From Bacillota bacterium (lineage in GTDB: Bacteria > Bacillota > Clostridia > UBA1381): a stretch of DNA of 64,000 bases. The notes below the pieces were generated by a model. The model ran no database searches. It was not told where the DNA came from and saw only the letters and a program-made list of their open reading frames with translations. The stretch covers positions 11,672 to 75,671 of the forward strand of contig JAIKVQ010000182.1 in NCBI GenBank assembly GCA_024685565.1. Direction: 5' to 3'. Positions within the stretch are counted from its first letter, which is position 1, and each line of letters begins with the position of its first letter. The position numbers were made by a program, and so were the translations under genes. Shown here piece by piece: positions 1-63,798 of this stretch.

Positions 1-575
1 ACAAACACGCTGTTGCATACGGCATCGACCGTGCAGCATTTAATCAGGGACAAAATGCTCTGTATAACTTTGCCGTTGAAGAAGAGCTTGAACCTACTAT
101 GGTTGCGAAAGGTCCGGGTGCTGTTGCGGAACCTACATACGAATCAAGCAAGAGCGGATACTTGGCAAGATTTTCAAAAGAAATAGCCTATACTCTTACG
201 GCAGAAGATTACAAAGATCCGCCCTGTATAAATGCAAACGAGACAGTTGAATATACAGTTAGAAGACTTACCCCGACCGAATGTGCGAGGCTTCAAGGGT
301 TTCCAGATTGGTGGTGTGCCGATCTTGAAACTGAAAAGCCGACCAATGACGATATTCTGTTCTGGCATAAAGTCTTTGAAGAATATCGACTTGCGACCGC
401 TCCCGACAAAAAAACGAAAACGGGTAAACAAATCATCAAATGGCTGAAAGCACCGTATTCGGATAGCGCGGAATATAAGATGTGGGGTAACGGCGTATGT
501 CTTAATATCGTAGCTATGGTTATGTTCGGCATAAAATGGGCCTATGAAAGCGAAAAAATAATAGGGAACGAATAA
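1..575 (+). CDS. DNA (cytosine-5)-methyltransferase, C-terminal part (5' end outside window)
   Basis: Frame open from nt 3. The tail carries the C5-MTase motif IX/X region (RRLTPTECARLQGFPDWW ... MWGNGV). The ATG at 99 is internal. Confidence 0.85.
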   Translation, partial: KHAVAYGIDRAAFNQGQNALYNFAVEEELEPTMVAKGPGAVAEPTYESSKSGYLARFSKEIAYTLTAEDYKDPPCINANETVEYTVRRLTPTECARLQGFPDWWCADLETEKPTNDDILFWHKVFEEYRLATAPDKKTKTGKQIIKWLKAPYSDSAEYKMWGNGVCLNIVAMVMFGIKWAYESEKIIGNE

Positions 576-585
576 AATCCGATCC

Positions 586-762
586 CTATTTGTCCGATAA
601 CTCTATTTTGCCGTGTATATCTTCAAACTCCGATATGCACTTTTTTATGAGGAATTCGATCTCCTTGTTTTTTGTCCGACCCTCTGAATCCGCAATGTAT
701 TCAAGCTTGTCAAGCAATGCCTTGGAAGTGCGGAGTGTAAATCTTGTTTGACTATCCTTCAT
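586..762 (-). CDS. small ribbon-helix-helix (Arc/CopG-like) protein, 58 aa, below the ORF-track cutoff
   Basis: Hand translation MKDSQTRFTLRTSKALLDKLEYIADSEGRTKNKEIEFLIKKCISEFEDIHGKIELSDK. N-terminal beta-strand plus two-helix pattern. GAGGAG SD about 6 nt upstream of the ATG. Confidence 0.5.
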   Translation of the reverse strand: MKDSQTRFTLRTSKALLDKLEYIADSEGRTKNKEIEFLIKKCISEFEDIHGKIELSDK

Positions 763-887
763 AACGACTCTCCTCTGACTAAATTATGACGCAGTATTGA
801 CTCAATTATACCATTCGTATATAATGTTGTGGAAAAATGACGCAGTTTTGACGCATATTTTTTCAAGGTTTTATGTGAGGTGGTTTT

Positions 888-1229
888 ATGAAGGTTGCAG
901 TTATAGGGTCAAGGAATTTACATATCGAGGAGCTTGGCAGTTATTTGCCGGAGGATACCGAAGAAATCGTAAGCGGAGGTGCAAAGGGCATTGACTCGGA
1001 TGCAAGGGAGTATGCCAAGGAGCATAATATTCCGCTCCGTGAGTTTCTTCCCGATTACAAAAGGTATAAAAGGGGCGCACCGTTTAGGCGTAATATGCAG
1101 ATTTGCGATTATGCCGATATTGTTTTGGCGTTTTGGAACGGCAGCTCCGGCGGTACAAAATATGTAATAGACTATTGCAAAAAGAATAATATTCCGGTAT
1201 CCGTTTTCGTTGTGGACTCTACACAATAA
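888..1229 (+). CDS. SLOG-fold protein (DUF2493 / DprA-like Rossmann domain)
   Basis: 113 aa with VIGSRN ... SGGAKGIDSDAREYA ... FWNGSSGGTKYV, the Gly-rich pattern of DUF2493-type SLOG proteins from phages and conjugative elements. Confidence 0.65.
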   Translation: MKVAVIGSRNLHIEELGSYLPEDTEEIVSGGAKGIDSDAREYAKEHNIPLREFLPDYKRYKRGAPFRRNMQICDYADIVLAFWNGSSGGTKYVIDYCKKNNIPVSVFVVDSTQ

Positions 1230-1258
1230 AAAACCGATATATTTGGTGTAATAAACAC

Positions 1259-1287
1259 TTGATAAGCCGTGCCCTTGACGGTAATAT
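1259..1287 (+). promoter_or_regulatory. promoter of repeated-cassette type (copy F)
   Basis: TTGATA (1259-1264), 17-nt spacer, TAATAT (1282-1287), then leader AAAGAAGGAGG and ATG at 1318. Same layout as the copy at 61004-61032. Confidence 0.6.
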
Positions 1288-1317
1288 GTGGCTACAAAAA
1301 AAGAAGGAGGTCACAAA

Positions 1318-2007
1318 ATGACAAGAACTTATTCAAAAATTAACTTTGATGTCAAAGGCACAAAACGAAAAGAACTCGTCAGCCTTATTTCAAATTTCAC
1401 AGGCTGCGAGGCAAAGTACAAAGGCGCACCGTCATTTGCCTACGAAGTGGATCGCTTCACCATCGACAAAAACGGAGCGGTCACATTTGACGACAGAGCG
1501 GACAGCGAGGTCATTGAAAGGTTGCTTGAAATGCTTTATGACAACGGCTTTACCGCAGAAAACGGCGACACGGAAAGTACTGCTCCGGGGACAGAATCAG
1601 AAGACATAGGGCTTTCTATTAACATTCCTATTGATAAGGTGAATGTTGAAAATATGGTAGCCTTGCTCAAAACCAAGGGCGACCTTATAAAAACGGCACT
1701 TGGTATAGATAATGTCGATGTTGTGCCGAAGGATGAACTGGTGGAGTTTCCTTGGTTCGGAGAGGTTAATGCCGAGGATGCAATGGCATATTCCCAATTC
1801 ATATCCGCTCTTTGTAGCTTTACAAAAAAGCAGACAAGGATAAACGCTGTATCTGCAAAAGCAGAGAATCCGAAATACGCATTCCGATGCTTCCTCTTAC
1901 GGCTCGGTTTCATTGGTGACGAGTATAAGAAGACAAGGAAGATCTTGCTCCGAAACCTTGAGGGAAGCTCCGCTTTTAAGAATGGAAGGAAAAACGAGGT
2001 GCAGTAA
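1318..2007 (+). CDS. conserved hypothetical protein, first gene of the amidoligase module; C-terminal LLRLGFIGDE motif
   Basis: Start moved from the track's GTG at 1288 to the ATG at 1318 (AGGAGG SD; matches the start of paralogue 61066..61758, MTQTNAKINF). N-terminal ~80 aa are nearly identical between the two copies. Confidence 0.7.
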   Translation: MTRTYSKINFDVKGTKRKELVSLISNFTGCEAKYKGAPSFAYEVDRFTIDKNGAVTFDDRADSEVIERLLEMLYDNGFTAENGDTESTAPGTESEDIGLSINIPIDKVNVENMVALLKTKGDLIKTALGIDNVDVVPKDELVEFPWFGEVNAEDAMAYSQFISALCSFTKKQTRINAVSAKAENPKYAFRCFLLRLGFIGDEYKKTRKILLRNLEGSSAFKNGRKNEVQ

Positions 2008-2008
2008 A

Positions 2009-2227
2009 ATGGCTGACAGATTTTTTTCGGTCACTAAATGTGACCGCTGTGGAGGCTCCCTTGAGGGCGGCAGAATAATGTCGATGTTTAACGAGGACTG
2101 CATTTGTATGGACTGTCATAAAAAAGAACGGGAGCTTCCAGAATTCAAACAAGCAGCCGATGCCGAGCTTGCGGAAATCAAGCGTGGGAATTACAATTTT
2201 CCGGGCATCGGATACCCGGAAAAATAG
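2009..2227 (+). CDS. small zinc-ribbon protein (CxxC ... CxxC)
   Basis: MADRFFSVTKCDRCGG...NEDCICMDCHKKE. The ATG overlaps the upstream stop region. Paralogue at 61751..61969. Confidence 0.65.
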   Translation: MADRFFSVTKCDRCGGSLEGGRIMSMFNEDCICMDCHKKERELPEFKQAADAELAEIKRGNYNFPGIGYPEK

Positions 2228-2338
2228 GTGTAATATACACAATAATACTTTTTATCATTGTGTAGTAATGGTATTACAATTAATCCTTTTCAGAGCTAAT
2301 ATGGACACAACAAAAGCAAAGAAAAGGAGATAAAAACA
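2228..2338 (+). promoter_or_regulatory. repeated regulatory cassette copy A (palindrome + promoter + leader)
   Basis: IR ATACACAAT(2234-2242)/ATTGTGTAG(2257-2265). -35 TTACAA 2274-2279, 17-nt spacer, -10 TAATAT 2297-2302. AAGGAG SD before the ATG at 2339. Confidence 0.6.
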
Positions 2339-3280
2339 ATGAACGAAAAGACAAGAAAATTCATCGAGGAAATGAAAAAGCAGACCATCGGGATTGAAAT
2401 CGAGATGGCAAACATCACAAGGGAAAAAGCCTGCAGAGTGGTTGCAAAATACTTCGGCACAGAGAACACAGTAAAGTACGAGCGCGGCGGTTACGACACT
2501 TGGAGTTGCAAGGACAACCAAGGCAGAACTTGGAGGATAACAAGGGACAGCAGCATAATAGCAAACAGCGATGCAGAAAAAGCCGAGCTTGGAACACCGA
2601 TCCTTACCTACGACGACATTGAGGACTTGCAAGAGATAGCAAGGCAGTTGAGACACGCCGGGGCGATTTCAAACCCCAGACACGGATGCGGAGTACATTG
2701 CCACATTGGAGCAAACGGACACAACCCCAAAACACTCCGAAACCTCGCAAACATCATGGCAAGCCACGAGGAGATTTTAGCAAAGGCATTAAGCATTGAC
2801 AACAACAGGCTTGAGCGTTGGTGCAAAAAGGTAGACAGAGAATTCCTTGAAAAGCTAAACCGCAGAAAACCCAAAACAATGGCGAAGCTTGCAGACCTTT
2901 GGTACCAAGGTGCATACGGCTCAAGAAGCGATCATTACAACAGCTCAAGATACAGAATGCTAAACCTCCACGCCACCTTCACAAAGGGTACGGTTGAATT
3001 CAGACTTTTCCAATTCGACAACCCTTCGGAAGGACGCAGAGGCGGCATTCACGCAGGACAGCTTAAAAGCTACATTCAAATTTGCCTCGCCCTTTCCCAA
3101 ATGGCAAAAACACAGAAATCGGCAAGCTCAAGACCACAACAGGACGAAAACCAAAGATACGCAATGAGAACTTGGCTCCTACGCCTCGGCTTCATCGGAG
3201 ACGAATTCAAAACAGCAAGGGAACTCTTTACAAAGCGACTCACGGGAGACACAGCCTTCAGAAACGGCAGACCCGCCTAA
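2339..3280 (+). CDS. putative amidoligase (glutamine-synthetase-like Amidoligase_2 family)
   Basis: 313 aa. Recognised from family memory (N-terminal GIEIEM..ITR, HCHIG, TVEFRLF blocks) and from the conserved neighbourhood with a GGCT gene. Paralogue at 62105..63046. Confidence 0.6.
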   Translation: MNEKTRKFIEEMKKQTIGIEIEMANITREKACRVVAKYFGTENTVKYERGGYDTWSCKDNQGRTWRITRDSSIIANSDAEKAELGTPILTYDDIEDLQEIARQLRHAGAISNPRHGCGVHCHIGANGHNPKTLRNLANIMASHEEILAKALSIDNNRLERWCKKVDREFLEKLNRRKPKTMAKLADLWYQGAYGSRSDHYNSSRYRMLNLHATFTKGTVEFRLFQFDNPSEGRRGGIHAGQLKSYIQICLALSQMAKTQKSASSRPQQDENQRYAMRTWLLRLGFIGDEFKTARELFTKRLTGDTAFRNGRPA

Positions 3281-3355
3281 AGCGGAACCTCCCGACACCA
3301 ACCCGCCCCGGCGGGCTTAAGGTGGTAGAAGAACGATTTGAAAGGAGATTTTTTT

Positions 3356-3826
3356 ATGAAAAACGAAAAAAGATACTACATCGCATACGGGAGCAACTTG
3401 AGCGTTACCCAAATGCATTGGCGTTGCCCCGATGCAAAGGTTGTAGGCAAAGGCGAATTGAATGATTGGAGGCTCCTTTTTAAGGGCAGCAAAACAGGCT
3501 CCTACCTAACTATTGAAAGGTGCAAAGGCAGCAAGGTTCCTGTTGCGGTATGGGAAGTCAGCGAAAGGGATGAGGCTGCACTTGACCGATATGAGGGCTA
3601 TCCATCCTTTTACTACAAAGAAGAGCTTACCTTCGAGTTTAGAAGCGTTATAACGGGCAAAAAGCACAAAGCGATAGTTTTCGTTTACATCATGCACGAG
3701 GACAGACCGCTCGGTATTCCATCAGAGCATTACCTAAAAATTTGTGCCGCAGGCTATTATCTTTTCAAATTCGATACAAAATACTTGAAAGAAGCCCTGC
3801 ACTATAGCGAGGAGGTGATGGAATGA
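3356..3826 (+). CDS. gamma-glutamylcyclotransferase (AIG2/GGACT-like)
   Basis: YIAYGSNL near the N-terminus and a downstream ...VAVWEV..RDEAALDRYEGYP block, typical of the GGCT fold. ATG 3356 lies 8 nt after AAAGGAG; the TTG at 3338 lies inside the SD. Paralogue at 63122..63589. Confidence 0.75.
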   Translation: MKNEKRYYIAYGSNLSVTQMHWRCPDAKVVGKGELNDWRLLFKGSKTGSYLTIERCKGSKVPVAVWEVSERDEAALDRYEGYPSFYYKEELTFEFRSVITGKKHKAIVFVYIMHEDRPLGIPSEHYLKICAAGYYLFKFDTKYLKEALHYSEEVME

Positions 3827-4029
3827 TGAAGAACGAAACACACGCAGAAACGGTATGCCCAAAATGCGGTAAGGTTTACTATGATGCACCTGCCCTTTCG
3901 AGAGCGGACAATGAAACCCTTATTTGCCCCGACTGCGGAATCCGAGAAAGTCTTTCCGTTTTCGGACTGAGCGAAGAAGAACAGGAACATATCATAAATA
4001 CCATTCATAGAACCTACAAAGCGCAATAA
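3823..4029 (+). CDS. small zinc-ribbon protein (CPKCG ... CPDCG)
   Basis: 68 aa with two CxxC pairs. Overlaps the GGCT stop. Paralogue at 63586..63786. Confidence 0.65.
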   Translation: MMKNETHAETVCPKCGKVYYDAPALSRADNETLICPDCGIRESLSVFGLSEEEQEHIINTIHRTYKAQ

Positions 4030-4035
4030 CTGCAC

Positions 4036-4155
4036 CATATTATACACAATTGCCGCTCTGAACATTTGTGTAGTAATGGTATTACATTTAATCCTTTTTA
4101 GAGTTAATATCACACTAACGAAAGGGCAAGAAGCCCGAAAAAGGAGGAAACAAAA
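4036..4155 (+). promoter_or_regulatory. repeated regulatory cassette copy B
   Basis: IR TATACACAAT/ATTTGTGTA. -35 TTACAT 4082-4087, 17-nt spacer, -10 TAATAT 4105-4110. Leader CACACTAACGAAAGGGCAAGAAGCCCGAAAAAGGAGGAAACAAAA then ATG. Confidence 0.6.
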
Positions 4156-4422
4156 ATGACAACATTCACAACCATCGAAAACCTTGACGAAAGACTTAGA
4201 CCCGCATACGATGCACTCATTCGCTACAAAGAGCACGTTTGCTTGGCAAGGCAAAACTACAAGGGCGAATACGAGGCGGAAATTTACGAGTTTATTGACG
4301 ACCCGGAGATTGACGGATTTCCCGAAATCGAATGCCGCATAGCATTGATTGAGAAGTCGGAAACAAAGTTCCCTGATAGCGGATCGGCAATAAAATGGTG
4401 CTTTGGAGTTCTTGAAAAATAA
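4156..4422 (+). CDS. hypothetical protein (88 aa), cassette gene
   Basis: ORF directly behind a conserved leader/SD and followed by a hairpin terminator. Confidence 0.6.
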   Translation: MTTFTTIENLDERLRPAYDALIRYKEHVCLARQNYKGEYEAEIYEFIDDPEIDGFPEIECRIALIEKSETKFPDSGSAIKWCFGVLEK

Positions 4423-4440
4423 GAAGAACGACAAAAGGCA

Positions 4441-4470
4441 AAGAGCCAATCAAGGCTCTTTTGCTCGTTT
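4441..4470 (+). terminator. rho-independent terminator (part of the repeat scaffold)
   Basis: AAGAGCC(4441-4447) loop GGCTCTT(4454-4460) followed by a T-rich tail. Confidence 0.6.
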
Positions 4471-4480
4471 GAAATTACGC

Positions 4481-4611
4481 ATAATATACACAAATACCGC
4501 TCCAAAATGTTGTGTAATATATATCTCAAAAATGACTTGATATATATCGTTTTTAGAGGTAATATCACACTAACAAAAGGGCAAGAAGCCCGAAAAAAGG
4601 AGGAAACAAAA
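4481..4611 (+). promoter_or_regulatory. repeated regulatory cassette copy C
   Basis: IR ATAATATACACAA/TTGTGTAATATAT. -35 TTGATA 4537-4542, 17-nt spacer, -10 TAATAT 4560-4565. Conserved leader with GGGCAAGAAGCCC hairpin. Confidence 0.65.
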
Positions 4612-5067
4612 ATGACAATGGATGAGAAATACCCAAGGCTTATAGGGTGTACGGAAAACGCTGAAACAGAGCTGCATAGCGTTAAAGAGGTTGCAGAGTT
4701 TATTTGCAAGAACGGGCTTGTAGAGGATTTGAAAATCCTAACACCAAGCGGAATGCAGTTTATAACGACCTTCGGACTTTTCCTTGACAAGATAGCGGAT
4801 TTGGAATACCGCACAGAGCTTCTCAAAATACTGATTCCGATGCAGAAGGAAATCGAAAAAGGAATATTTGGAGGAACGGATGAGGAGCGGATCGAAAAGG
4901 AGATAGTCGATTACCTTGAATCTGAACAATACGACATAGATGCGGCAATCGAAATAAGGTGGATACAGGAAAACGGCGGATGCACACCTTCAAGGGAATA
5001 CATAGAGGAACTCCTCAAAGAGCGGAAGCGCACCGAAATTGAAAAGGCGATAAAGGGGACGAATTAA
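4612..5067 (+). CDS. hypothetical protein (151 aa), cassette gene
   Basis: Start moved from the track's 4507 to the ATG at 4612, directly after the conserved AGGAGGAAACAAAA leader. The 4507 extension would read through the promoter cassette. Confidence 0.6.
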   Translation: MTMDEKYPRLIGCTENAETELHSVKEVAEFICKNGLVEDLKILTPSGMQFITTFGLFLDKIADLEYRTELLKILIPMQKEIEKGIFGGTDEERIEKEIVDYLESEQYDIDAAIEIRWIQENGGCTPSREYIEELLKERKRTEIEKAIKGTN

Positions 5068-5116
5068 AATAAAGGCTTTTAGGATAACGCTCCTGCAAAA
5101 GAACATCGAATAAAAG

Positions 5117-5147
5117 GCAAAGAGCCGAAAGAGGCTCTTTTGCTCGT
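5117..5147 (+). terminator. rho-independent terminator (repeat scaffold)
   Basis: GCAAAGAGCC / GGCTCTTTTGC hairpin with a T-rich tail. Near-identical to the one at 4441. Confidence 0.6.
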
Positions 5148-5148
5148 C

Positions 5149-5278
5149 ATAATATACACAATTTCCTTTCCGAATTATTGTGTAATATATATCTCGAAAA
5201 TGACTTGATATATAGTTGTTTTAGAGGTAATATCACACTAACAAAAGGGCAAGAAGCCCGAAAAAGGAGGAAACAAAA
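5149..5278 (+). promoter_or_regulatory. repeated regulatory cassette copy D
   Basis: IR ATATACACAAT/ATTGTGTAATAT. -35 TTGATA 5205-5210, 17-nt spacer, -10 TAATAT 5228-5233. Conserved leader. Confidence 0.65.
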
Positions 5279-5668
5279 ATGGCAGATTTATCAACAACTT
5301 ATGAGCTTTGGGATGAGCTCACAGAGGCACTTCACGGAACGGACAACGAATACCGCTACGGATTAAGCACAGATGGACTTCGGAGACCTTGCCTGGTTGA
5401 TTTTGAAACAAACACGGAAATCAAAGGCAACGAAGCGGTGCAGGAAGCCATCACAAAAATTATAGCAAAGGCAGACCTACAGGACTTCTTAAGCACTTTC
5501 GGATTCGGCATCAGCGTAGAGGAACTTGCGGAAAGGGCATACCGAAAATTGGATACACAAAGGCATAAGGTTTGCATAGTAAATTCCAGGTACCTTGAGG
5601 TGGACGGAACGACATTCCTTTTAAGCAAGAGCAAGAAGCACGGCGGCTGGATAGCCAAAGAAATCTAA
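5279..5668 (+). CDS. hypothetical protein (129 aa), cassette gene
   Basis: ATG directly after the conserved leader; followed by a hairpin. Confidence 0.6.
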   Translation: MADLSTTYELWDELTEALHGTDNEYRYGLSTDGLRRPCLVDFETNTEIKGNEAVQEAITKIIAKADLQDFLSTFGFGISVEELAERAYRKLDTQRHKVCIVNSRYLEVDGTTFLLSKSKKHGGWIAKEI

Positions 5669-5683
5669 ACGCAAAACAAAGCG

Positions 5684-5714
5684 GAGCGAGCCGAAAGGGG
5701 CTCTCTTCCTCGTT
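5684..5714 (+). terminator. probable terminator hairpin (repeat scaffold)
   Basis: GAGCC gaaagg GGCTC core with a flanking T/C-rich tail. Homologous position to the terminators at 4441 and 5117. Confidence 0.45.
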
Positions 5715-5715
5715 A

Positions 5716-5846
5716 TAAAATACACAATTTCCTCACCGAATTATTGTGTAATATATATCTCGAAAATGACTTGATATATAGTACATTTAGAGGTAATATG
5801 AACACAACAAAAGGGCAGAAAGCCCGGATTAAAAGGAGGAAACAAA
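5716..5846 (+). promoter_or_regulatory. repeated regulatory cassette copy E
   Basis: IR AAATACACAAT/ATTGTGTAATAT. -35 TTGATA 5771-5776, 17-nt spacer, -10 TAATAT 5794-5799. Leader variant GGGCAGAAAGCCC. Confidence 0.65.
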
Positions 5847-6107
5847 ATGCGTTACATTGACCACAGCAAATGCACATCAGCTTTTCAGAAAGGAGAAGAC
5901 CGCGAAATCAAGAGGCTTGGAAAACTCACAAGGACAGCCACAAGGATTGCAGAGCAGAACAAACTCGGAGTTTTGAAAAACCGCCAAGGCTACTTCAGAA
6001 TCATAAGAGAATGCGGACTTGGAGCTTACGAGGATTTCTTTTCCGACCTTGCAGAGGTTGACAGCTTTTTCAAAAACCTCGACAGCCACAAGGCAACAAA
6101 GTATTAA
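5847..6107 (+). CDS. hypothetical protein (86 aa), cassette gene
   Basis: ATG after an AAGGAGG leader; followed by two hairpins. Confidence 0.6.
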   Translation: MRYIDHSKCTSAFQKGEDREIKRLGKLTRTATRIAEQNKLGVLKNRQGYFRIIRECGLGAYEDFFSDLAEVDSFFKNLDSHKATKY

Positions 6108-6123
6108 TAAAAACGAAAACAAC

Positions 6124-6181
6124 GGAGCGGGCCGAGAGGCTCTGTTCCTCATTATACACAAGACCGCAAGGTCTATTTTTT
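6124..6181 (+). terminator. two consecutive terminator hairpins upstream of terL
   Basis: GGGCC gaga GGCTC (about 6128-6143), then AGACC gcaa GGTCT (6161-6174) plus ATTTTTT. Confidence 0.5.
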
Positions 6182-6287
6182 ATGCTCGTAAAAAGGGGGT
6201 TATATCATACGAAAATTAAAAAAATACACACCGACGCGGTTCTGTGCAAAGGACTCGGTTTACGATAAAGATGCGGCAGACTATGCC

Positions 6288-7808
6288 GTGAACTTTATAG
6301 AATGCTTATCTCATACAAAGGGTACATGGGCAGGTAAGCCGTTTGAACTCATCGACTGGCAGGAGCAGATTATTCGGGACATTTTCGGTACTTTGAAACC
6401 TAATGGGTATAGGCAGTTTAATACCGCATATATAGAAATTCCAAAGAAAATGGGGAAGAGCGAACTTGCTGCGGCAGTCGCTCTTTTGTTGTGTTGCGGT
6501 GACGGTGAAGAACGAGCAGAGGTTTATGGTTGTGCTGCTGACAGGCAACAGGCATCTATCGTTTTTGAAGTTGCAGCAGATATGATAAGAATGTGTCCCG
6601 CACTCAATAAGCGTGTAAAAATCCTGACTGCAACCAAGAGAATCATATATACGCCGACAAATAGTTTTTACCAAGTGCTGTCCGCCGAGGCTTATTCAAA
6701 GCACGGTTTTAATATTCATGGCGTCGTTTTCGATGAGCTACATACACAACCAAACAGGAAACTGTTTGATGTTATGACTAAAGGATCAGGCGATGCGAGA
6801 ATGCAACCGTTATACTTTCTCATAACAACAGCCGGGACAGATACAAATTCTATCTGTTACGAAACACATCAGAAGGCTATTGATATCCTTGAGGGGCGGA
6901 AAAGTGATCCTACATTTTATCCTGTGATTTACGGAGCGGCAGAAGATGATGACTGGACAGATCCTGCGGTCTGGAAAAAGGCTAATCCATCACTCGGTAT
7001 TACAGTTGGGATTGACAAAGTAAAAGCCGCCTGTGAATCTGCAAAGCAAAATCCCGCCGAAGAAAACTCTTTCAGGCAGCTTCGGTTAAACCAATGGGTA
7101 AAACAAGCGGTTAGGTGGATGCCTATGGAGAAGTGGGACAATTGTGCGTTTGCTACGGACGAGGATGAACTCTATGGGCGTGTATGCTATGGTGGACTTG
7201 ACCTTTCATCAACTACGGACATAACGGCGTTTGTGCTTGTGTTTCCTCCAATTGACGAGGAAGATAAATATGTTGTTCTGCCATATTTTTGGATACCGGA
7301 AGACAATATTGATCTTCGTGTACGGCGCGACCATGTTCCATACGATGTATGGGAGCGGCAAGGCTATCTTAAAACTACAGAGGGCAATGTGGTGCACTAT
7401 GGTTTCATAGAGAAGTTTATCGAAAGCCTCGGTGAAAGATACAACATCCGTGAGATTGCATTTGACCGATGGGGAGCGGTGCAAATGGTACAGAACCTTG
7501 AAGGTATGGGCTTCACGGTTGTTCCCTTCGGACAGGGCTTTAAGGATATGTCTCCGCCGACAAAGGAGCTTATGAAGCTTGTGCTTGAAGAGCGGATAGC
7601 ACATGGTGGGCATCCCGTTTTGCGGTGGATGATGGACAACATATACATTCGTACAGACCCTGCCGGAAACATCAAACCAGACAAAGAAAAATCGACAGAA
7701 AAAATTGACGGAGCGGTTGCAACGGTAATGGCACTTGACAGGGCGATACGCTGCGGTAACGACACATTGGAGAGCGTATATGATAACCGAGGATTGTTTA
7801 TAATTTGA
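6288..7808 (+). CDS. terL: terminase large subunit (Terminase_1-type)
   Basis: 506 aa. The HTKGTWAGKPFELIDWQ block, Walker-like IEIPKKMGKSELAA, VVFDELH, and position upstream of the portal all fit. The start is uncertain (see finding). Confidence 0.85.
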   Translation: MNFIECLSHTKGTWAGKPFELIDWQEQIIRDIFGTLKPNGYRQFNTAYIEIPKKMGKSELAAAVALLLCCGDGEERAEVYGCAADRQQASIVFEVAADMIRMCPALNKRVKILTATKRIIYTPTNSFYQVLSAEAYSKHGFNIHGVVFDELHTQPNRKLFDVMTKGSGDARMQPLYFLITTAGTDTNSICYETHQKAIDILEGRKSDPTFYPVIYGAAEDDDWTDPAVWKKANPSLGITVGIDKVKAACESAKQNPAEENSFRQLRLNQWVKQAVRWMPMEKWDNCAFATDEDELYGRVCYGGLDLSSTTDITAFVLVFPPIDEEDKYVVLPYFWIPEDNIDLRVRRDHVPYDVWERQGYLKTTEGNVVHYGFIEKFIESLGERYNIREIAFDRWGAVQMVQNLEGMGFTVVPFGQGFKDMSPPTKELMKLVLEERIAHGGHPVLRWMMDNIYIRTDPAGNIKPDKEKSTEKIDGAVATVMALDRAIRCGNDTLESVYDNRGLFII

Positions 7809-7832
7809 AAAGGAGCGGCAAATTACCGCTCC
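7806..7832 (-). terminator. terminator for the antisense abi gene
   Basis: On the minus strand GGAGCGG taatttg CCGCTCC is followed by TTTT. Confidence 0.55.
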
Positions 7833-7910
7833 AACAGACCGCCTGCAGTATTGCGCCTTTCGGCTCGCAGGAGAAGTCAATAAATACTATATGCAATTTT
7901 GATGAAATTA

Positions 7911-8780
7911 TTACAGCAAGTTTTCCCAGTCGGGATTAAATCCGTAATACTTCATATTTACAAACGGATATTTTTCTATAATGGCTTGTATTTCGGATTT
8001 CATTGAAAGGAAGTCTTCCGGTGACAAGAGGCGCTTAATAATAATTATAAATCCAAATAAATGTGCATTATCCTTTTCGCCTTTTTTATTGGTCATGAGT
8101 AGCTTTTTTTCATCACTTGATAAGTTTGGGCGTTGATCAAAAAAGCGGTTATATATTCTGCTTCCGTGTGCACACAGATTTCGCAGTATTGTCATCGAAT
8201 GCATAAGTTTTCCCAGTATGTTGCTTTTGATATTATACCTTTTGGCAACATCTATTTGCACATCATTTTTGGATATGGAATAAAGAATGGATATATCTGC
8301 TATTGTTAGTAGGTCAACATATGCCCACAAAGGCAAATCCTCGTTTAACTCCTCTATATAGTGCTTCAGATATGGCTCATCGCGAAGGCGTTTATCTTTT
8401 TGATGGTCTGCCTTTTCTATAATTTTGCTGTATTTATCACTGTCGATGAAGTTATCTTCGCATAAATAGCCGGTTGGTCCGTAAATGCGTGTGAATGTAT
8501 GTGCGTAAAGAGACTTAAACGTTACTTCGATTATTTCAAGATACTTAAGTAGAATATGTCTCAATTCATAATCAAATTCGTAAATATCTATGATATTTTG
8601 AAAAGTTGCGTTTTTATGGAATTTATCGTGAGTTCTCAATGTCAAAGAATAACCGCTGATTCGGTAATAGTTGTTATTAAGCAGAAAAGATGCCGCAGTT
8701 TCCTTGTCAGGAATGCTTAAACCGCGATTCTTGAGAATATCTATTTGCTCATCGATAGTCTTAAAGTCTTTAGTAGCCAT
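7911..8780 (-). CDS. Abi-like abortive-infection protein (Abi_2 / AbiD-AbiF family)
   Basis: 289 aa. N-terminal ...QIDILKNRGL...AASFLLNNNYYRISGY... is typical of Abi_2 proteins. AT-rich; antisense between terL and portal. Confidence 0.7.
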   Translation of the reverse strand: MATKDFKTIDEQIDILKNRGLSIPDKETAASFLLNNNYYRISGYSLTLRTHDKFHKNATFQNIIDIYEFDYELRHILLKYLEIIEVTFKSLYAHTFTRIYGPTGYLCEDNFIDSDKYSKIIEKADHQKDKRLRDEPYLKHYIEELNEDLPLWAYVDLLTIADISILYSISKNDVQIDVAKRYNIKSNILGKLMHSMTILRNLCAHGSRIYNRFFDQRPNLSSDEKKLLMTNKKGEKDNAHLFGFIIIIKRLLSPEDFLSMKSEIQAIIEKYPFVNMKYYGFNPDWENLL

Positions 8781-11030: not shown

Positions 11031-12227
11031 ATGACAATTTTGGAACTGAGAGAAAAGAGGAATAAAACATGGGAAGCGGCAAAATCGTTTCTCGACACGC
11101 ACAGAAATGAAAAAGGAATTCTATCTGCGGAGGACGATGCCACCTATTCCAAAATGGAAAAGGACATCGAGGACCTTGGCAAAGAAATTGCAAGGTTAGA
11201 GCGGCAGGCGGCGCTTGATGCTGAAATGGCAAAGCCTGTGGGCGAGCCTATCAAAAACGCTCCTGCAGGCACAAATTCTGAAAAAACGGGAAGAGCGCAA
11301 GATGAGTATAAAAAGAATTTCTGGAACGCTATGCGCACGAAGGCACCGGAGCGGAGCGTTATAAACGCTTTGCAGGTCGATGCCGATACGGAAGGCGGAT
11401 ATCTTGTCCCTGATGAGTATGAGCGTACTCTGATTGACGGGCTTAAGGAAAACAATATACTCCGTGAGCTTGCACATGTGATCACAACGGGCGGTGGCGA
11501 CAGAAAAATTCCCGTAGTCGCTTCTCACGGCAGTGCATCTTGGCTTGATGAGGAGGGTGCATACACCGAAAGTGACGATTCATTCGGTCAGGTAACACTC
11601 GGAGCGTATAAGCTCGGTACTATGATAAAGGTATCGGAGGAGCTTCTGCACGATAGTGTATTTGATTTGGAAGGATACATATCCACCGAATTTGCGAGAC
11701 GTATTGGTAATGCCGAGGAGGACGCATTCTTAAACGGCAACGGAACAGGTAAGCCACTTGGAATATTGAGCAATACGGGCGGCGCACAAATCGGACTTAC
11801 GAGTGCTGCGGCTGCGGCAATCACCAGTGATGAGTTGATATCCCTTTACCACAGCCTTGCTGTTCCGTACCGTAAACAGGCGGTATGGCTTATGAATGAC
11901 TCTACTGTTCAGGCAATACGCAAGCTAAAGGACGGTACAGGTCAGTATTTGTGGCAGCCGTCTCTTGTATTGGGTGCTCCTGACACTATTTTTGGTGTAC
12001 CCGTAAAGGTGTCAAGGTATATGCCGGAGCTTGGAGCGGGGAACAAGACGATAGCATTTGGTGATTTCTCATATTACTGGATTGCAGACCGTGAAGGCAT
12101 ATCCTTCCTGCGCCTCGATGAGCTGTTCAGAACTACTGGACAGATCGGATTCAGAGGCTCAAAGCGTGTTGACGGAAAGCTCATCCTTCCCGAAGCAATA
12201 AAAGTATTAAAGCAGAAGGCATCGTGA
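11031..12227 (+). CDS. major capsid protein (HK97 fold) with N-terminal coiled-coil delta domain
   Basis: 398 aa. DTEGGYLVPDEYERTLIDGL...ILRELAHVITT block. Position after the protease. Confidence 0.85.
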   Translation: MTILELREKRNKTWEAAKSFLDTHRNEKGILSAEDDATYSKMEKDIEDLGKEIARLERQAALDAEMAKPVGEPIKNAPAGTNSEKTGRAQDEYKKNFWNAMRTKAPERSVINALQVDADTEGGYLVPDEYERTLIDGLKENNILRELAHVITTGGGDRKIPVVASHGSASWLDEEGAYTESDDSFGQVTLGAYKLGTMIKVSEELLHDSVFDLEGYISTEFARRIGNAEEDAFLNGNGTGKPLGILSNTGGAQIGLTSAAAAAITSDELISLYHSLAVPYRKQAVWLMNDSTVQAIRKLKDGTGQYLWQPSLVLGAPDTIFGVPVKVSRYMPELGAGNKTIAFGDFSYYWIADREGISFLRLDELFRTTGQIGFRGSKRVDGKLILPEAIKVLKQKAS

Positions 12228-29781: not shown

Positions 29782-29861
29782 ATTGTCTTGATATTGTTTG
29801 AGTTCAGAGGTAATATGCATATACGCAATTACGTAGCCGATTTTTGGCAGGAAGGATAGTT

Positions 29862-31463
29862 ATGAGGGATTCAGGAAAAGAGGTCTATTCAGGCGGACTA
29901 TATTTGCGTTTATCACGAGAAGATAGGATGCAAAATAATGAAAGCATGAGTATATCAAATCAAAGAAAAATTACAGTAAGATATGCAACAGAGAATAAAA
30001 TTGAGATTGTTGAAATCTATATTGATGATGGTTATTCAGGTGTTAGCTTTGAAAGACCTGCATTCAATAGGATGATCAAGGATCTTGAGAACGGAAAAAT
30101 AAACTGTGTTATTGTAAAAGATATGTCTCGACTCGGCAGGAATGATGTTGAGGCAAATAGATATTACGAGGATGTATTTTTAACAAAGCATTATCGATTC
30201 ATTGCTATTGATGACAATGTTGACACATTAAGAGGATATGAGCAGCATGCAACCTTTAAAAACATGTTTAACTCAATGTATCCGAGAGATATTTCTCAGA
30301 AAACTCATTCAGCTTATATGGCATTAGCTCATAATGGCGAAAAAGTTGGGAAAGCCCCTTATGGATTAAAACATGATCCTGACAATAGGTATCATCTTAT
30401 CATTGATGAAGAAGCTGCAAAGGTTATAAGATATATATTTAGTTTAGCAATGAAAGGGATGTCAAGAAAAAAAATAGCAAGAATTTTAAGAGAAGAAAAA
30501 ATATTAAGTCCTGCGGCATACGCTAAAAGAAGCGGATGTAAAAGATATGAAAAGTACGTTAGTGCTTATGATGATGATTATATGTGGTGCGATAAAACGG
30601 TCGGTCAAATACTAATGAATGAGTTTTATATTGGAAGCAATGTTGCTAATACTACTCGTCGGTCATTCAAAACAGGGAAGTGTGAAAAATTACCAAGAGA
30701 AGAATGGGTTATCGTGCCCGATGTTCATGAAGCTATTATTTCAAAGGAAGTTTTCTATAGAGTACGAGATATTTTTAAGAGTCGTAGAAGAGGAACAAAA
30801 ATGGAAACCGTACAGTTATTTGCTGGATTAGTAAAATGCAAGGACTGTTCAAGATCAATGAATTATACTGGTGGCGATGTGCCTTTTTATACATGCGGAA
30901 CATATAGGAATAAAGGAAAAAAATACTGTTCTTCACATAGAATAAGGTATGAGGATGTTTATAACTGTGTGTTGCAGGACATACGGGATAAAACTTCCAA
31001 GCTTGAAAAAAATCGAGAAGAATTCATTGTTGCGGCATCAAGCAACTTTCAAATCAGTTTAAAGGAAGAGACTCGGAATTTAGAAAAAAGGTTAAAAGAA
31101 TTAACGCAGCGTTATGGTGAAATTGATATTCTCATACAAAAAACATATGAAAATTCCGTGCTTGGAAATTTATCAGGCGAGAGAATGTCGCTACTCATAG
31201 CAAATTATGAAAATGAGCAGATAGAAGTAAAAGAAGAACTCGAAAAGATAAAATTAGAAATAAAAACTATTCAGGAAAAGCACAAAAATGTTGTAGATTT
31301 CACTAAACTAATAGAACAGTACATTGGTGTGGAAAAAATAACAATGGAAATGGCTTTAGAGCTTATAGAAAAAATCGAAATAGGCGAAAAGTATATAAAA
31401 AATGGTAGGACATATCAGGATATTGATATAAGTTATCGATTCGTTGGTAAAATTGCGGTATAA
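29862..31463 (+). CDS. large serine recombinase (integrase)
   Basis: N-terminal resolvase domain (LYLRLSREDR...SISNQR), recombinase domain, Cys-rich zinc ribbon (CKDCSRSM...YTCGTY..KYCSSH), C-terminal coiled coil. Confidence 0.85.
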   Translation: MRDSGKEVYSGGLYLRLSREDRMQNNESMSISNQRKITVRYATENKIEIVEIYIDDGYSGVSFERPAFNRMIKDLENGKINCVIVKDMSRLGRNDVEANRYYEDVFLTKHYRFIAIDDNVDTLRGYEQHATFKNMFNSMYPRDISQKTHSAYMALAHNGEKVGKAPYGLKHDPDNRYHLIIDEEAAKVIRYIFSLAMKGMSRKKIARILREEKILSPAAYAKRSGCKRYEKYVSAYDDDYMWCDKTVGQILMNEFYIGSNVANTTRRSFKTGKCEKLPREEWVIVPDVHEAIISKEVFYRVRDIFKSRRRGTKMETVQLFAGLVKCKDCSRSMNYTGGDVPFYTCGTYRNKGKKYCSSHRIRYEDVYNCVLQDIRDKTSKLEKNREEFIVAASSNFQISLKEETRNLEKRLKELTQRYGEIDILIQKTYENSVLGNLSGERMSLLIANYENEQIEVKEELEKIKLEIKTIQEKHKNVVDFTKLIEQYIGVEKITMEMALELIEKIEIGEKYIKNGRTYQDIDISYRFVGKIAV

Positions 31464-31660: not shown

Positions 31661-31688
31661 ATATAATACTCTAAATCCAAAAAGTAAT

Positions 31689-31783
31689 CGTGTTCTTATG
31701 GGTATAAAACGTGTTCCTATGGGGTAATCGTGTTCCTATGGGTATAAAACGTGTTCCTATGGGGGTAATCGTGTTCCTATGGG
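31689..31783. repeat. five direct 14-bp repeats CGTGTTC(C/T)TATGGG at about 20-bp phasing (2.5 copies of a 40-bp unit)
   Basis: Copies at 31689, 31710, 31729, 31750 and 31770. The 40-bp unit is GTAATCGTGTTCCTATGGGTATAAAACGTGTTCCTATGGG. Confidence 0.9.
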
Positions 31784-31815
31784 TTTTGGGGATAAAAATA
31801 AAGAGCCGAAGCTCC

Positions 31816-41627: not shown

Positions 41628-42278
41628 TCAGTATATACCTCGTTCCCACTTGTTTGTCTGTGTTAATTGCGGCAATCGCAAACCAGTATATGCCATATAA
41701 CGATAAAGCGTCCCTTTAGCAACATTGATTTCTTTAGCAATGCACGGGATAGAAACCCCTGAATTATATAATTGAGTGATATACTCATGATTATTCACAC
41801 AGTTATTATTCAACTTCTTGTTTCTACAACCTTGGATTCTACCTATATGCTTTCCTTCCGATTTAATCCTTGCCAGGGCTTCTTTCGTTCTCTGACTAAT
41901 TAGGTTTCTTTCGATTTCAGCGGAAAGCCCAAATGCAAAGGCTAATACCTTGCTTTGTATATCATCTCCCAATCTGTAATTATCTTTAATTGTCCATACC
42001 TTGCATTCCTTGCTCATGCAAATGTTAAGTATTTCCATAATCATAAAGAGGTTTCTACCCAACCTGGATAACTCTGTGCATATTATCATGTCGTCTTTTG
42101 ATATTTTTGATAAAAGATTCCCAAGCTCTCTTTTTGAATAAGACTTTGTTCCACTTATTGTTTCTTCTATCCAACCTCCTATTGCTATTTTATTTGCTTC
42201 ACAAAATGCTTTTATTTCAAAACGTTGGTTTTCCACCGTTTGTTTATCACTACTAACCCGAATATAACCATAAATCAT
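41628..42278 (-). CDS. small serine recombinase (resolvase/invertase, Hin/Gin-like)
   Basis: MIYGYIRVSSDKQ catalytic Ser motif, ...SRLGRN..., C-terminal HTH (IAKEINVAKGTLYRY). 216 aa. Confidence 0.85.
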   Translation of the reverse strand: MIYGYIRVSSDKQTVENQRFEIKAFCEANKIAIGGWIEETISGTKSYSKRELGNLLSKISKDDMIICTELSRLGRNLFMIMEILNICMSKECKVWTIKDNYRLGDDIQSKVLAFAFGLSAEIERNLISQRTKEALARIKSEGKHIGRIQGCRNKKLNNNCVNNHEYITQLYNSGVSIPCIAKEINVAKGTLYRYMAYTGLRLPQLTQTNKWERGIY

Positions 42279-47620: not shown

Positions 47621-48025
47621 ATGAAAATCAAATATCAATTTGTAAATGAAACTACAGAAATTGAGGTATCGGATGATTGGGGTGCTATATTAATAGACCT
47701 CGACAAACACGAATTCAACAATAATCGAAAGGAAACGAGAAGGCACTTGCCGATTGACACCCTCATATTCGAGGGTGAAAAGTATGGCGCAGAGGACGAT
47801 AATTTATTATCTATCAACGGCAGGAATGAGATGGAAATATTGATTCACGAAGCAATCGACAGCCTAACCCCTGACCAAAAAGACCTTATTCAAAAAATAT
47901 ATTTTGAAGATTGGAGCGTAATCGAATACGCCGAAATGCTCGGTGTTATGCCATCTGCGGTATCCCACAGATTAATTAGAGCAAGAAAAAAATTAAAAAA
48001 ATTTTTAACAGACCGTCAGTTTTGA
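47621..48025 (+). CDS. sigma-70-family protein (region 4 only)
   Basis: LTPDQKDLIQKIYFEDWSVIEYAEMLGVMPSAVSHRLIRARKKLKKFL. Confidence 0.6.
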   Translation: MKIKYQFVNETTEIEVSDDWGAILIDLDKHEFNNNRKETRRHLPIDTLIFEGEKYGAEDDNLLSINGRNEMEILIHEAIDSLTPDQKDLIQKIYFEDWSVIEYAEMLGVMPSAVSHRLIRARKKLKKFLTDRQF

Positions 48026-48281: not shown

Positions 48282-48610
48282 GCAGAGTGAAACTACTCCT
48301 TGATGTGATTTCCGACCTGCGCTCCCTTGCTGATAGCGTGGAGGCGGTTGCAAATGCAATGGCTGACCCCGATGCGCCTGTGACCGAGCCGAAAAAGGAA
48401 ACCGCTCCGAAGCCGAAAGCGGAAGCTAAAACCGAAACGGTGGAATTCGAGAAGCTGTTTGAGGTTTTGAAAAAGCTCTCGGAGGACGGCTTCAGAGCAG
48501 AGGTCAAGGCACTACTTACAAAGTACGGTGTTCCGAAGTTGAGCGAACTCCCGAAGGAAAAGTATGCGGCGGTGCTTGCCGAAGCGGAGGAAATCAGGAA
48601 TGGGAACTAA
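48278..48610 (+). CDS. hypothetical protein (110 aa)
   Basis: ORF, Lys/Glu/Pro-rich centre; overlaps neighbours by a few nt. Confidence 0.5.
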   Translation: MSRVKLLLDVISDLRSLADSVEAVANAMADPDAPVTEPKKETAPKPKAEAKTETVEFEKLFEVLKKLSEDGFRAEVKALLTKYGVPKLSELPKEKYAAVLAEAEEIRNGN

Positions 48611-49733: not shown

Positions 49734-49747
49734 GAGGATATGTAATC

Positions 49748-56957: not shown

Positions 56958-57165
56958 AATTACGGTAATCGAGCCGCATCAGTTATTGGCAGAAGCCATT
57001 ATCCTTCAGGCGGTTAAGGATTACAGAAAAGCATTGAAGTATGATGTCAGGAGCGTCAAGCGTGAGTGCGAGAGGTTTTTCCGTTCCGACTGGTTTCAAA
57101 CCCTGACGAAACTGGACGGCAACACGCTGATTAACAGGTTACGAATGGAGGTTAAAGCAATATGA
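56929..57165 (+). CDS. hypothetical protein (78 aa)
   Basis: ATG 56929 after GGAGGT. The track start 56896 is rejected. Confidence 0.5.
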   Translation: MKHTIKTPNEITVIEPHQLLAEAIILQAVKDYRKALKYDVRSVKRECERFFRSDWFQTLTKLDGNTLINRLRMEVKAI

Positions 57166-60930: not shown

Positions 60931-60944
60931 AATAGATCCGAAAT

Positions 60945-61969: not shown

Positions 61970-61972
61970 CTG

Positions 61973-63786: not shown

Positions 63787-63798
63787 GGAGGAGCAACC

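Follow-up and report, generated by a model that had tools for sequence, protein, structure and literature searches.

What is the function of a regulatory sequence that is repeated, in one orientation, ahead of each of a row of small genes next to a phage terL gene? The question was raised by positions 4030-6185 of a 64,000-nucleotide stretch of the Bacillota bacterium assembly GCA_024685565.1 (contig JAIKVQ010000182.1, positions 11,672 to 75,671 of the forward strand; Clostridia, UBA1381), referred to as the window. An original prediction, made from the sequence alone, described this region as an array of insulated single-gene cassettes on a common scaffold of terminator, inverted repeat, promoter and leader. 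The scaffold was compared to the promoter-early-stem-loop elements (PeSLs) of T4-type phages. PeSLs are units of a sigma-70-like promoter and a stem-loop in T4-type hyperplastic regions, where they mediate indels and replacements and have been proposed to stop transcription from spilling over into late virion genes (PMC2839356, PMC4122927). The present analysis favours, with a probability of roughly 70%, the reading that the scaffold is a composite regulatory and recombination module, PeSL-like in its workings, of a large temperate Clostridia phage lineage of the Candidatus (Ca.) Heliusvirales type.

Predicted promoters and structure of the array

The eight -10 elements (TAATAT at 1282, 2297, 4105, 4560, 5228, 5794, 61027 and 62051) were read from the sequence at exactly the positions listed in the original prediction, and a -35 of TTGATA or TTACA(A/T) with an exact spacer of 17 nucleotides (nt) was seen at each of them. 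The (T/C)AGAG sequence before the -10, previously counted in six of the eight, was found in seven; the unit at 1282 has GACGG instead. The pattern AGAGNTAATAT had eight matches in the window, all on the + strand, where 0.13 were expected from shuffled sequences and none of 100 shuffles reached eight. The eighth match, at 29806, is an additional promoter of the same core class, absent from the earlier list. It extends from 29788 to 29816 on the + strand (TTGATA 29788-29793, a 17-nt spacer with CAGAGG, TAATAT 29811-29816), shows no clear TACACA dyad, and lies directly 5' of the large serine recombinase gene (29844-31463). The integrase is preceded by the same core promoter also in the complete Heliusvirales genome PV036413 (2964-3046), and it may be co-regulated with the amidoligase module and the cassettes. 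In a consensus scan in silico, the TTGATA-17-TAATAT arrangement scored 9 of 12 for four units.

Four of the five tandem units described for the array are complete, and the fifth, before terL, is truncated. All are on the + strand. U3 (4036-4155) comprises dyad arms at 4041-4049 and 4066-4072, a -35 TTACAT at 4082-4087, a -10 at 4105-4110, a leader hairpin at 4124-4136 and a ribosome-binding site (RBS) at 4141-4147, and precedes cargo gene C1 (4156-4422; 88 amino acids, aa). U4 (4481-4611; dyad 4485-4493 and 4510-4516, -35 4537-4542, -10 4560-4565, leader and RBS; profile E=1.7e-20) precedes C2 (4612-5067; 151 aa). U5 (5148-5278; dyad 5153-5161 and 5178-5184, -35 5205-5210, -10 5228-5233, leader and RBS; profile E=4.3e-21) precedes C3 (5279-5668; 129 aa), and U6 (5714-5846; dyad 5721-5727 and 5744-5750, -35 5771-5776, -10 5794-5799) precedes C4 (5847-6107; 86 aa). 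U3 and U6 are hybrids, as set out below. The truncated unit (6124-6181) consists of a first hairpin (6124-6148), the remnant ATTATACACAA of a left dyad arm (6150-6160) and a second hairpin (6161-6174) with a T-run; the two hairpins fold at -23.8 kcal/mol (z=-3.3). U4-U6, the class-A units of the array, are mutually 84-93% identical compared with 61% for random pairs, which is consistent with selection, gene conversion or both. The long leader with a GGGC-AAGAA-GCCC hairpin had been ascribed to most units, but it is confined to the four of the array. Exact-pattern scans of viral, genome and metagenome contigs for the array-type leader AGAGNTAATATNANACNAACNAAAGGGCARRAAGCCCG gave no match.

The four cargo proteins fell into four separate BLAST clusters, in agreement with the view that they are unrelated. 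A Pfam family was found for C1 only (Nmad4, PF18756, E=3.6e-20). PDB sequence searches with C2, C3 and C4 returned nothing significant, PADLOC assigned no defence family to the cargo, and exact-protein look-ups of C2, C3 and P0006 gave no match. Homologues of C2 with 96% and 85% identity were found in metagenome contigs only, and homologues of C4 (73-78% identity) sit behind the scaffold in eight other terL-related loci. A further C2 homologue, 49% identical and located in L169 (Logan SRR9866652 contig), adjoins RloB and TrbL-type genes. This is a conjugative-element-like context, and at least one cargo family is therefore common to other mobile elements.

Conservation of the unit among related phages

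For comparison, the 160 best loci (80 per collection) were kept of about 600 matching stretches each in IMG/VR and GTDB; terL was 86-92% identical in these loci. A scaffold profile was built from the units and applied to 168 sequences from three collections. It gave 294 sites in 143 of the sequences, nearly all of them terL-related loci of the Ca. Heliusvirales type, with many from Clostridia. Of the 294 matches, 288 were on the + strand, on which the genes also lie wherever the orientation of the locus was set. The six minus-strand matches came from L003, L005 and L007, which had been fetched unoriented, and in L003 and L005 the genes are reversed too.

Most loci have one to three units, located at three conserved places: before AmiN, before the amidoligase gene, and after Zn2 ahead of terL. 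With P for a unit, the backbone gene order is DUF1492, HNH, terS, c8, ParB-methylase, (c3), P, AmiN, Zn1, P, amidoligase, GGCT, Zn2, P, variable small genes, terL, and the gene content between Zn2 and terL varies among the 160 relatives. Exactly three units were found in the complete genome PV036413, one each ahead of the amidoligase gene, the pre-terL genes and the recombinase gene. The description of the units as monocistronic holds for the window array, but in most relatives a unit heads two to three genes; strictly monocistronic arrays are therefore special to the sub-lineage of the window. Amidoligase module and scaffold occurred together in 99 loci, the module alone in 3, the scaffold alone in 4 and neither in 5. 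The module was wholly absent in five relatives with full upstream coverage, and from its distribution module and promoters together look like an insertion into an ancestral terS-terL late operon.

The constraint on the unit was calculated from 258 distinct units. The left arm T.CACA (1.9-2.0 bits), the -35 cTTGnTAT (1.5-2.0 bits) and AATAT of the -10 (2.0 bits) were strongly conserved, with A-11 and T-7 invariant, and TTTAGAG reached 1.3-2.0 bits. The AGAG itself reached 1.7-2.0 bits, so the constraint on the AGAG box equals that on the canonical hexamers. Values of 0.1-0.5 bits were found for the dyad loop and over most of the spacer. In some units AGAG is replaced by TATGG, a TRTG-type extended -10 (TATGGTAATAT), or by TGACGG. 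The core may be read as a sigma-A/sigma-70-type promoter with a weak -10 and an extra conserved element. An alternative sigma factor was also considered, as the -10 resembles the sigma-H RNNGAATWW by eye when the variable bases are TG, and was dropped for lack of an AGGA -35 at the right distance.

The inverted repeat was present in six of the eight units of the original prediction and degenerate in the two units before AmiN genes. Its consensus among relatives is TACACAA-N16-TTGTGTA. The arms are 17 nt apart in 101 of 110 scorable units while the intervening sequence is free, and the -10 follows the right arm at one of three distances, 32-33, 42-43 or 52-53 nt (16, 89 and 14 units). The fixed arm spacing and the distance steps of about 10 bp indicate a dimer bound on one face of the DNA helix and not an RNA hairpin, and by these comparisons the dyad behaves as a putative protein operator. 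Its centre would lie near -60, -70 or -80, and the geometry together with the poor -10 suggests an activator. In L168, a close relative of the window, the unit before C3 (2036-2096) has lost most of the right arm, together with the spacer as far as the -35, through a 24-nt deletion (..ATTATTGT|TGATATATAG..). This unit is probably a natural operator mutant with the core promoter kept.

The scaffold was also looked at in the prophages L143, L144 and L149 of Gammaproteobacteria (Succinimonas, Ruminobacter and an uncultured gammaproteobacterium), whose terL is 87% identical to that of the window. The core promoter (TTGACTTGCTAT..CAGAGCGAATAT) is kept there and the TACACA dyad is not evident. L143, which is within a 722-kb scaffold of its assembly, and L149 also have the amidoligase/GGCT/Zn2 module; L144 has only about 0.4 kb upstream of terL. 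A host span from Firmicutes to Gammaproteobacteria is unusually wide for genes of such similarity.

Exchange of cassettes between relatives

Among the 160 terL-related loci C2 has no homologue and C3 distant ones only. Close relatives were found through protein homologues of C2 and C3, in three independent metagenome contigs. Between Zn2 and terL the window has four units (Nmad4, C2, C3, C4). L168, with 85-92% nucleotide identity to the window, has six (a 72-aa Zn-ribbon gene, Nmad4, C2, C3, DUF6900, C4), and L172 has a 105-aa gene followed by eight (Zn1-like, Zn-ribbon, Nmad4, C2 plus 61 aa, C3, DUF7698, C4 plus N6/N4 methylase, DUF6900). The same architecture and cargo order were found in the independent assemblies L168, L172, L173 and L174. 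The comparison across relatives called for by the original prediction thus revealed gain or loss of cassettes relative to the window, permutation between L168 and L172, and breakpoints inside the scaffold. DUF6900 precedes C4 in L168 and follows it in L172, and the Zn1 gene, located behind AmiN in the window, forms a cassette with a scaffold in L172. The DUF6900 gene of L168 still has the terL-proximal double hairpin downstream, which would be the footprint of a permutation.

Two crossovers were resolved by three-way junction alignment. U3 of the window equals the L168 unit before the 72-aa Zn-ribbon gene up to AGAGTTAATAT and, from TAATATC on, the L168 unit before Nmad4. In U6, identity to the L168 unit before DUF6900 extends up to ..CGTTATAAAATACACAA and gives way there to identity to the one before C4. 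The crossovers are located in the -10 TAATAT of U3 and in the left dyad arm ATACACAA of U6, in identity stretches of 6-7 nt and 8-9 nt. When the window is aligned with L172, neighbouring blocks overlap at two places only, U6 (5688-5849) and the terminal terminator module (6110-6183). The scaffolds of the window and L168 have 97-99% identity, compared with 85-92% for the surrounding DNA. The scattered positions of the crossovers point to homologous recombination or single-strand annealing rather than a site-specific system. A PD-(D/E)XK nuclease and an Enc34/Gp2.5-like single-stranded DNA (ssDNA)-binding protein, encoded at 48564-50293, could supply the recombination activity.

In more distant relatives, breakpoints were scored where the flanks had at least 88% identity. 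About 15 distinct indel or replacement events and the L168 Zn-ribbon cassette event gave 32 breakpoints, 13 of which fell in the extended scaffold, an area of 8.5% of the bases. Many right-hand breakpoints were located just 5' of the conserved pre-terL hairpins.

Predicted terminators and the start of terL

A near-identical terminator had been described before each unit. A GAGCC-loop-GGCTC hairpin does follow each of the four cargo genes, but it is found there only, with none after Zn1 or Zn2. The hairpin behind C1 (4434-4472, + strand) has the structure AAAGAGCC-loop-GGCTCTTT followed by TTTTGCTCGTTT (-16.3 kcal/mol, z=-3.1), the one behind C2 (5112-5147, + strand) a stem at 5119-5140 (-16.0 kcal/mol, z=-3.6), and the one behind C3 (5681-5712, + strand) the sequence GAGCC-GAAAGG-GGCTC with the T-tract CTCTTCCTCGTT (-15.0 kcal/mol, z=-2.0). 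Over all cargo terminators the fold energies were -15 to -16.6 kcal/mol with z-scores of -2.0 to -3.6. The hairpins, for which termination is a predicted activity, are located about 10-35 nt 5' of the dyad and not inside the promoter.

The two hairpins of the truncated unit are placed immediately before terL. Hairpin 1 shows compensatory changes, and hairpin 2 with its T-run (6161-6181, ..TATTTTTTATGC) is directly 5' of the terL RBS, which the truncated unit abuts. A stable hairpin abutting a T-run was observed 25-40 nt before terL in 86 of 125 non-redundant relatives; the stem sequences differ and the pairing is kept. This conservation was judged sequence by sequence, as hairpin 2 was aligned poorly by RNAalifold of the pre-terL regions. 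A similar arrangement of hairpin, TTTT.TTATGCC and RBS is present 5' of HNH, after the DUF1492 gene. If the hairpins terminate, antitermination, leaky termination or a promoter spanning the hairpin would explain transcription of terL. A TTATGA-17-TATTTT-like arrangement spanning hairpin 2 in some relatives was considered as a terL promoter and rejected as weak, unconvincing and not conserved.

The downstream anchor of the array, terL (6207-7808, + strand), starts at ATA 6207, 7 nt after a GGGGG Shine-Dalgarno sequence, and has a stop codon six codons upstream. The next canonical start, GTG at 6288, would drop 27 residues that are kept in all relatives, and L168 has the ATA start as well (3705-3800). 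The homologous first codon in 141 relatives was TTG (52), ATG (38), GTG (14), ATC (13), ATA (12), ATT (10) or CTG (2). ATA, ATC, ATT or CTG thus account for 37 of the 141, and the starts suggest a selection for weak initiation of terL.

Proposed function and alternative explanations

In the favoured reading the module would consist, from 5' to 3', of a GAGCC-loop-GGCTC(T)n hairpin, the TACACAA-N16-TTGTGTA dyad, a core promoter, a short leader with a small hairpin, and a strong Shine-Dalgarno sequence. The core promoter, cTTG(A/C)TAT with a 17-nt spacer ending in TTTAGAG and a (T/G)AATAT, would be of the sigma-A type. Both the amidoligase/GGCT module and the small accessory genes inserted between terS and terL are probably expressed from it, and its core promoter is found ahead of the integrase as well. 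The dyad would be the operator of a dimeric regulator, held on a fixed helix face about 60, 70 or 80 bp upstream of the start site, a geometry typical of an activator, and the hairpins would stop read-through between units and into terL. The plasticity of the array, in contrast to its expression, is shown by the comparison of relatives: recurrence of the module of about 90-170 bp in direct orientation lets homologous recombination or single-strand annealing delete, duplicate, insert and reorder cassettes, perhaps helped by the phage's own pair of nuclease and ssDNA-binding protein. The four-cassette array of the window is one state of a polymorphic array, with six and eight units in the closest relatives.

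Several points weigh against this reading. Generic scans of positions 1-8000 were not enriched, either for sigma-70 promoters (13 found, 14.3 expected) or for terminators, so the statistical weight rests on the recurrence of the specific motif and on the profile matches (E down to 1e-21). Promoter, terminator and operator functions are predictions, the T-tracts behind C3 and C4 are weak, and no promoter was found for terL behind the last terminator. Conservation is far lower in the right dyad arm than in the left, and the dyad could alternatively be an 11-mer that occurs twice (TGTAATATACA, TGTAATATATA) at a distance of about 33 bp. The regulator has more than one candidate: the Zn1 and Zn2 Zn-ribbon proteins, which always flank the units, and the LtrA-like protein. 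Extra Zn-ribbon paralogues are carried as cassettes in L168 and L172. Nineteen of the 32 breakpoints in distant relatives fell outside the scaffold. In one example Nmad4 is replaced by c24 after C4 and the left breakpoint has no promoter unit. As several events took place without it, the scaffold favours shuffling and is not required. Finally, the cassette differences can be read either as gain or as loss.

A more far-reaching version can be put forward only tentatively, and is doubtful. It holds that the units form a lineage-wide promoter and operator class run by a regulator from the same inserted module (Zn1/Zn2, Ogr/Delta-like, or LtrA-like), and that they amount to a self-contained platform for accessory genes with scaffold-to-scaffold reshuffling and one-cassette transfer circles. 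A more modest explanation is that the cassettes are ordinary morons, with constitutive sigma-A promoters, accessory genes expressed in the prophage for lysogenic conversion or defence, and terminators that shield the late operon. The similarity of the units would then be due to recent local duplication, without a role in recombination or regulation. A promoter, gene and terminator between genes that are adjacent in relatives fit the moron definition (PMC2629481), and a second variable slot behind terL holds the defence gene AbiD in the window and a MazE/PemK pair in L172. The canonical TRTG-type extended -10 in place of AGAG in some units and the persistence of the core promoter in the Gammaproteobacterial prophages also agree with morons. 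The explanation was nevertheless considered unlikely. In most relatives the conserved amidoligase/GGCT module and the integrase have the scaffold ahead of them as well, crossovers inside the scaffold were seen directly, and the AGAG box and phased dyad, needless for a plain constitutive promoter, are strongly selected over the 258 distinct units.

The inverted repeat and leader might instead act at the RNA level, for example as an antitermination site, a riboswitch, a small RNA, or a hairpin for processing or stability. The repeat of U5 is able to fold (-7.4 kcal/mol, z=-2.7), one arm position often shows G-T combinations (24%), and the terminator-like hairpins before terL and HNH hint at antitermination control in the region. 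The copy in U4, however, folded no better than shuffled sequence (z=-0.6), and compensatory covariation between the arms was lacking: deviations in the left arm were rarely compensated in the right (1/33, 8/32, 0/3, 0/6 and 2/69), and right-arm deviations behaved similarly. With a loop of fixed length and free sequence, a position upstream of the promoter it accompanies, and no Rfam 15 match in 1-8000 at E<=1, an RNA element is very unlikely. The chance is slimmer still for an integron-like or other site-specific system in which the palindrome is an attC-like site for, for example, a serine recombinase. Single-gene cassettes are indeed separated by imperfect palindromes and serine recombinase genes are present in the window (29844-31463 and 41628-42278), but none adjoins the array, and the large one is in the usual prophage-integrase position about 24 kb away. 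Moreover, the cassettes have their own promoters, the crossovers fall at varying places (-10 box, left dyad arm, terminator module) without a fixed site, and the helical phasing of dyad and promoter points to transcription and not to recombination. Chance or an assembly artefact, through repeats collapsed or duplicated in a metagenome-assembled genome, has a negligible probability. A protein identical to C3 is on record from an NCBI metagenome-assembled genome, and the window is therefore probably part of one, but the cargo between the copies is unique and coding, the architecture recurs in the four independent assemblies named above, and the 143 sequences with the scaffold come from three collections.

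Phage context

The PeSL-like module, as favoured here, belongs to a phage whose type was assigned correctly in the original prediction. Sheath, tube and baseplate J genes indicate a contractile tail, and the large serine recombinase and CI/ImmA a temperate life style, as expected for a temperate Firmicutes myovirus. The window holds two related phages, A (about 1-31.5 kb) and B (about 41-64 kb). The gene order in A is methylase C-terminus, SLOG protein, AmiN, Zn1, amidoligase, GGCT, Zn2, array and terL, followed by AbiD on the opposite strand, portal, ClpP-type protease, capsid, sheath, tube, baseplate J, amidase and serine recombinase. Phage B has ImmA/CI, an LtrA-like Sigma70_r4 protein, the PD-(D/E)XK nuclease, the Enc34/Gp2.5-like ssDNA-binding protein, DUF1492 (LtrB-like), HNH and terS. 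These are followed by an S-AdoMet-synthetase-N protein, a ParB-methylase and a second block from AmiN to Zn2. The location of the array between terS and terL was supported by synteny with this second copy, in which terS (Terminase_4), HNH and DUF1492 are upstream of the methylase-amidoligase block. The two sigma-like genes that had been pointed out (47621-48025 and 57162-57599) are both in phage B. Among annotated genomes, the nearest belong to Ca. Heliusvirales phages of Acutalibacteraceae and Oscillospirales. Promoters, terminators or cassettes are not mentioned in the paper describing the order.

The AmiN-Zn1-amidoligase-GGCT-Zn2 block occurs twice (1-4030 and 60900-64000), with 73-88% nucleotide identity and a distance of about 59.75 kb, and the second copy has another gene (63811 onward) directly behind Zn2, with no scaffold. 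The four units of these blocks are on the + strand. U1, before the AmiN gene (1219-1317), has a degenerate dyad (ACACAA..TTGGTGTA), -35 TTGATA at 1259-1264, -10 TAATAT at 1282-1287 and GACGG in place of AGAG, and is a weak profile match. U2, before the amidoligase gene (2230-2338), is of the short-spacing class and has no terminator (dyad arms 2234-2242 and 2258-2264, -35 TTACAA 2274-2279, -10 2297-2302). In phage B, U8 (60948-61065) precedes the AmiN gene (-35 61004-61009, -10 61027-61032, degenerate dyad) and U9 (61972-62104) the amidoligase gene (dyad 61976-61984 and 62001-62007, -35 62028-62033, -10 62051-62056, profile E=5.6e-21). AmiN (1318-2007, no Pfam match) and the amidoligase (2339-3280) share a C-terminal part of about 75 aa with 42% identity (..LRLGFIGDE.K..R..L...L.G..AF..G), and both match PHROG 2443. 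By this similarity AmiN looks like a paralogue with the catalytic N-terminal part lost or replaced.

Variable genes were also observed between terL and portal. The window has the AbiD abortive-infection gene there (7911-8780, - strand), L172 the MazE/PemK toxin-antitoxin pair (11563-12164), and L147, L150 and L167 have scaffold units just after terL; from its gene content the terL-portal slot is probably a second variable hotspot. Between the integrase and a divergent HTH_3 gene, five head-to-tail copies of 20-23 nt (a 40-nt super-repeat, GTAATCGTGTTCCTATGGGTATAAAACGTGTTCCTATGGG) occupy 31681-31784. They may be operator or iteron-like sites, or be related to the attachment site.

Relation to known phage elements

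The likeness to PeSLs was borne out both in structure and by comparison. Like a PeSL, the scaffold combines a sigma-70-type promoter with a terminator-like stem-loop and ends in the Shine-Dalgarno sequence and start codon of the next gene. It is repeated in one orientation in a hyperplastic region (four units in 2.1 kb in the window), mostly upstream of ORFans, and breakpoints of indels and replacements between close relatives fall in the motif. That transcription of accessory genes is kept out of the virion genes is a proposal for both. The differences are considerable. The scaffold is found in temperate Gram-positive Clostridia phages, with myovirus and siphovirus members, and not in T4-like lytic phages, and has no sequence similarity to T4 PeSLs. 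It has 1-10 copies per genome, confined to one inserted module and the integrase, compared with about 50 for PeSLs. Its stem-loop is upstream of the promoter, whereas that of a PeSL is within or overlapping it, and only the scaffold has the phased upstream dyad and the invariant AGAG box, with a (T/G)AATAT -10 that is off consensus. The scaffold works like a PeSL and is not a genealogical member of the T4 element family. No description of PeSL-like elements in temperate Firmicutes phages was found in the open-access literature.

The moron concept goes back to Juhala et al. and Hendrix et al., both in 2000. Morons of lambdoid and P22-like phages (PMC2629481) also have their own promoter and terminator signals, are inserted in the late operon between genes adjacent in relatives and vary in content at a fixed slot, just as the window, L168 and L172 differ in the cassettes that they carry. 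Unlike morons, which have no common regulatory scaffold, all units described here share one, and it would also drive conserved genes; expression from the prophage is a prediction. The SAS and ESAS of Cluster K mycobacteriophages (PMC3203893) resemble the scaffold as conserved sequences at the translation start of some non-structural genes, with upstream imperfect inverted repeats in one orientation of which the left is better conserved than the right. In contrast to the scaffold, the SAS is a 13-bp sequence at the RBS and the ESAS a 17-bp inverted repeat with a 4-13-bp spacer, neither has a promoter or terminator, and the proposed role is in translation, with no described role in shuffling and no sequence similarity. 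Integron cassettes share the tandem order of single genes with imperfect palindromes between them. The scaffold array differs in having no adjacent IntI-type integrase or nearby tyrosine recombinase, in its own promoters and in scattered crossovers.

Activator-dependent phage promoters offer a further parallel. The P2 Ogr and P4 Delta proteins act at a TGT-N12-ACA dyad near -55. Ogr/Delta and the Ltr superfamily (RinA/ArpU/LtrA/LtrB, PMC3753634) are alike in using phage-specific promoters with an upstream repeat or dyad for a small phage activator, the binding being predicted in the case of the scaffold. The window has LtrA-like (Sigma70_r4) and LtrB-like (DUF1492) genes, and two of the three conserved scaffold positions come directly after the small Zn-ribbon genes Zn1 and Zn2, for which no homology to Ogr/Delta was detected. 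Ltr sites differ from the scaffold in being direct repeats just 3' of the ltr gene, before terS. Position 57600-57802, 3' of the DUF1492 gene, is the equivalent of the site at which Ltr activators bind in phages of staphylococci and enterococci (PMC3753634). It contains short repeats of the GAGAG type, a hairpin at 57686-57713, and a 31-nt sequence repeated directly at 57722-57752 and, with overlap of the HNH start, at 57772-57802. An Ltr-type late promoter was dropped as a candidate, the DUF1492-HNH intergenic region having no scaffold match and no 9-mers shared with the pre-terL region beyond the RBS. Because this region, the expected target by analogy, is without scaffold, the DUF1492 protein is also less likely to be the regulator of the units.

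Significance

In the gut Clostridia of humans and animals, prophages of the Ca. Heliusvirales type rank with the most widespread phages (PMC11283538). The units define, by sequence, a putative promoter and operator class that is conserved over hundreds of phages in many host families. Recombination between repeated regulatory modules is a concrete mechanism, at the level of sequence, for the fast turnover of small genes beside the packaging genes, and PeSL-style shuffling extends beyond T4-like lytic phages. The reading predicts that a dimeric regulator binds TACACAA-N16-TTGTGTA, that activation depends on helix phase and that one-cassette circles are detectable. The profile enables a systematic harvest of cargo genes, with candidate anti-defence or DNA-modification functions, and the unit may serve as a compact, insulated expression unit for engineering gut Firmicutes phages. 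If the doubtful, more far-reaching version is true, a self-contained platform acquires DNA-modification or anti-defence genes, insulates and reshuffles them, and expresses them on cue under a portable, phage-controlled promoter. For temperate phages of Gram-positive gut bacteria, such a system would be a first.

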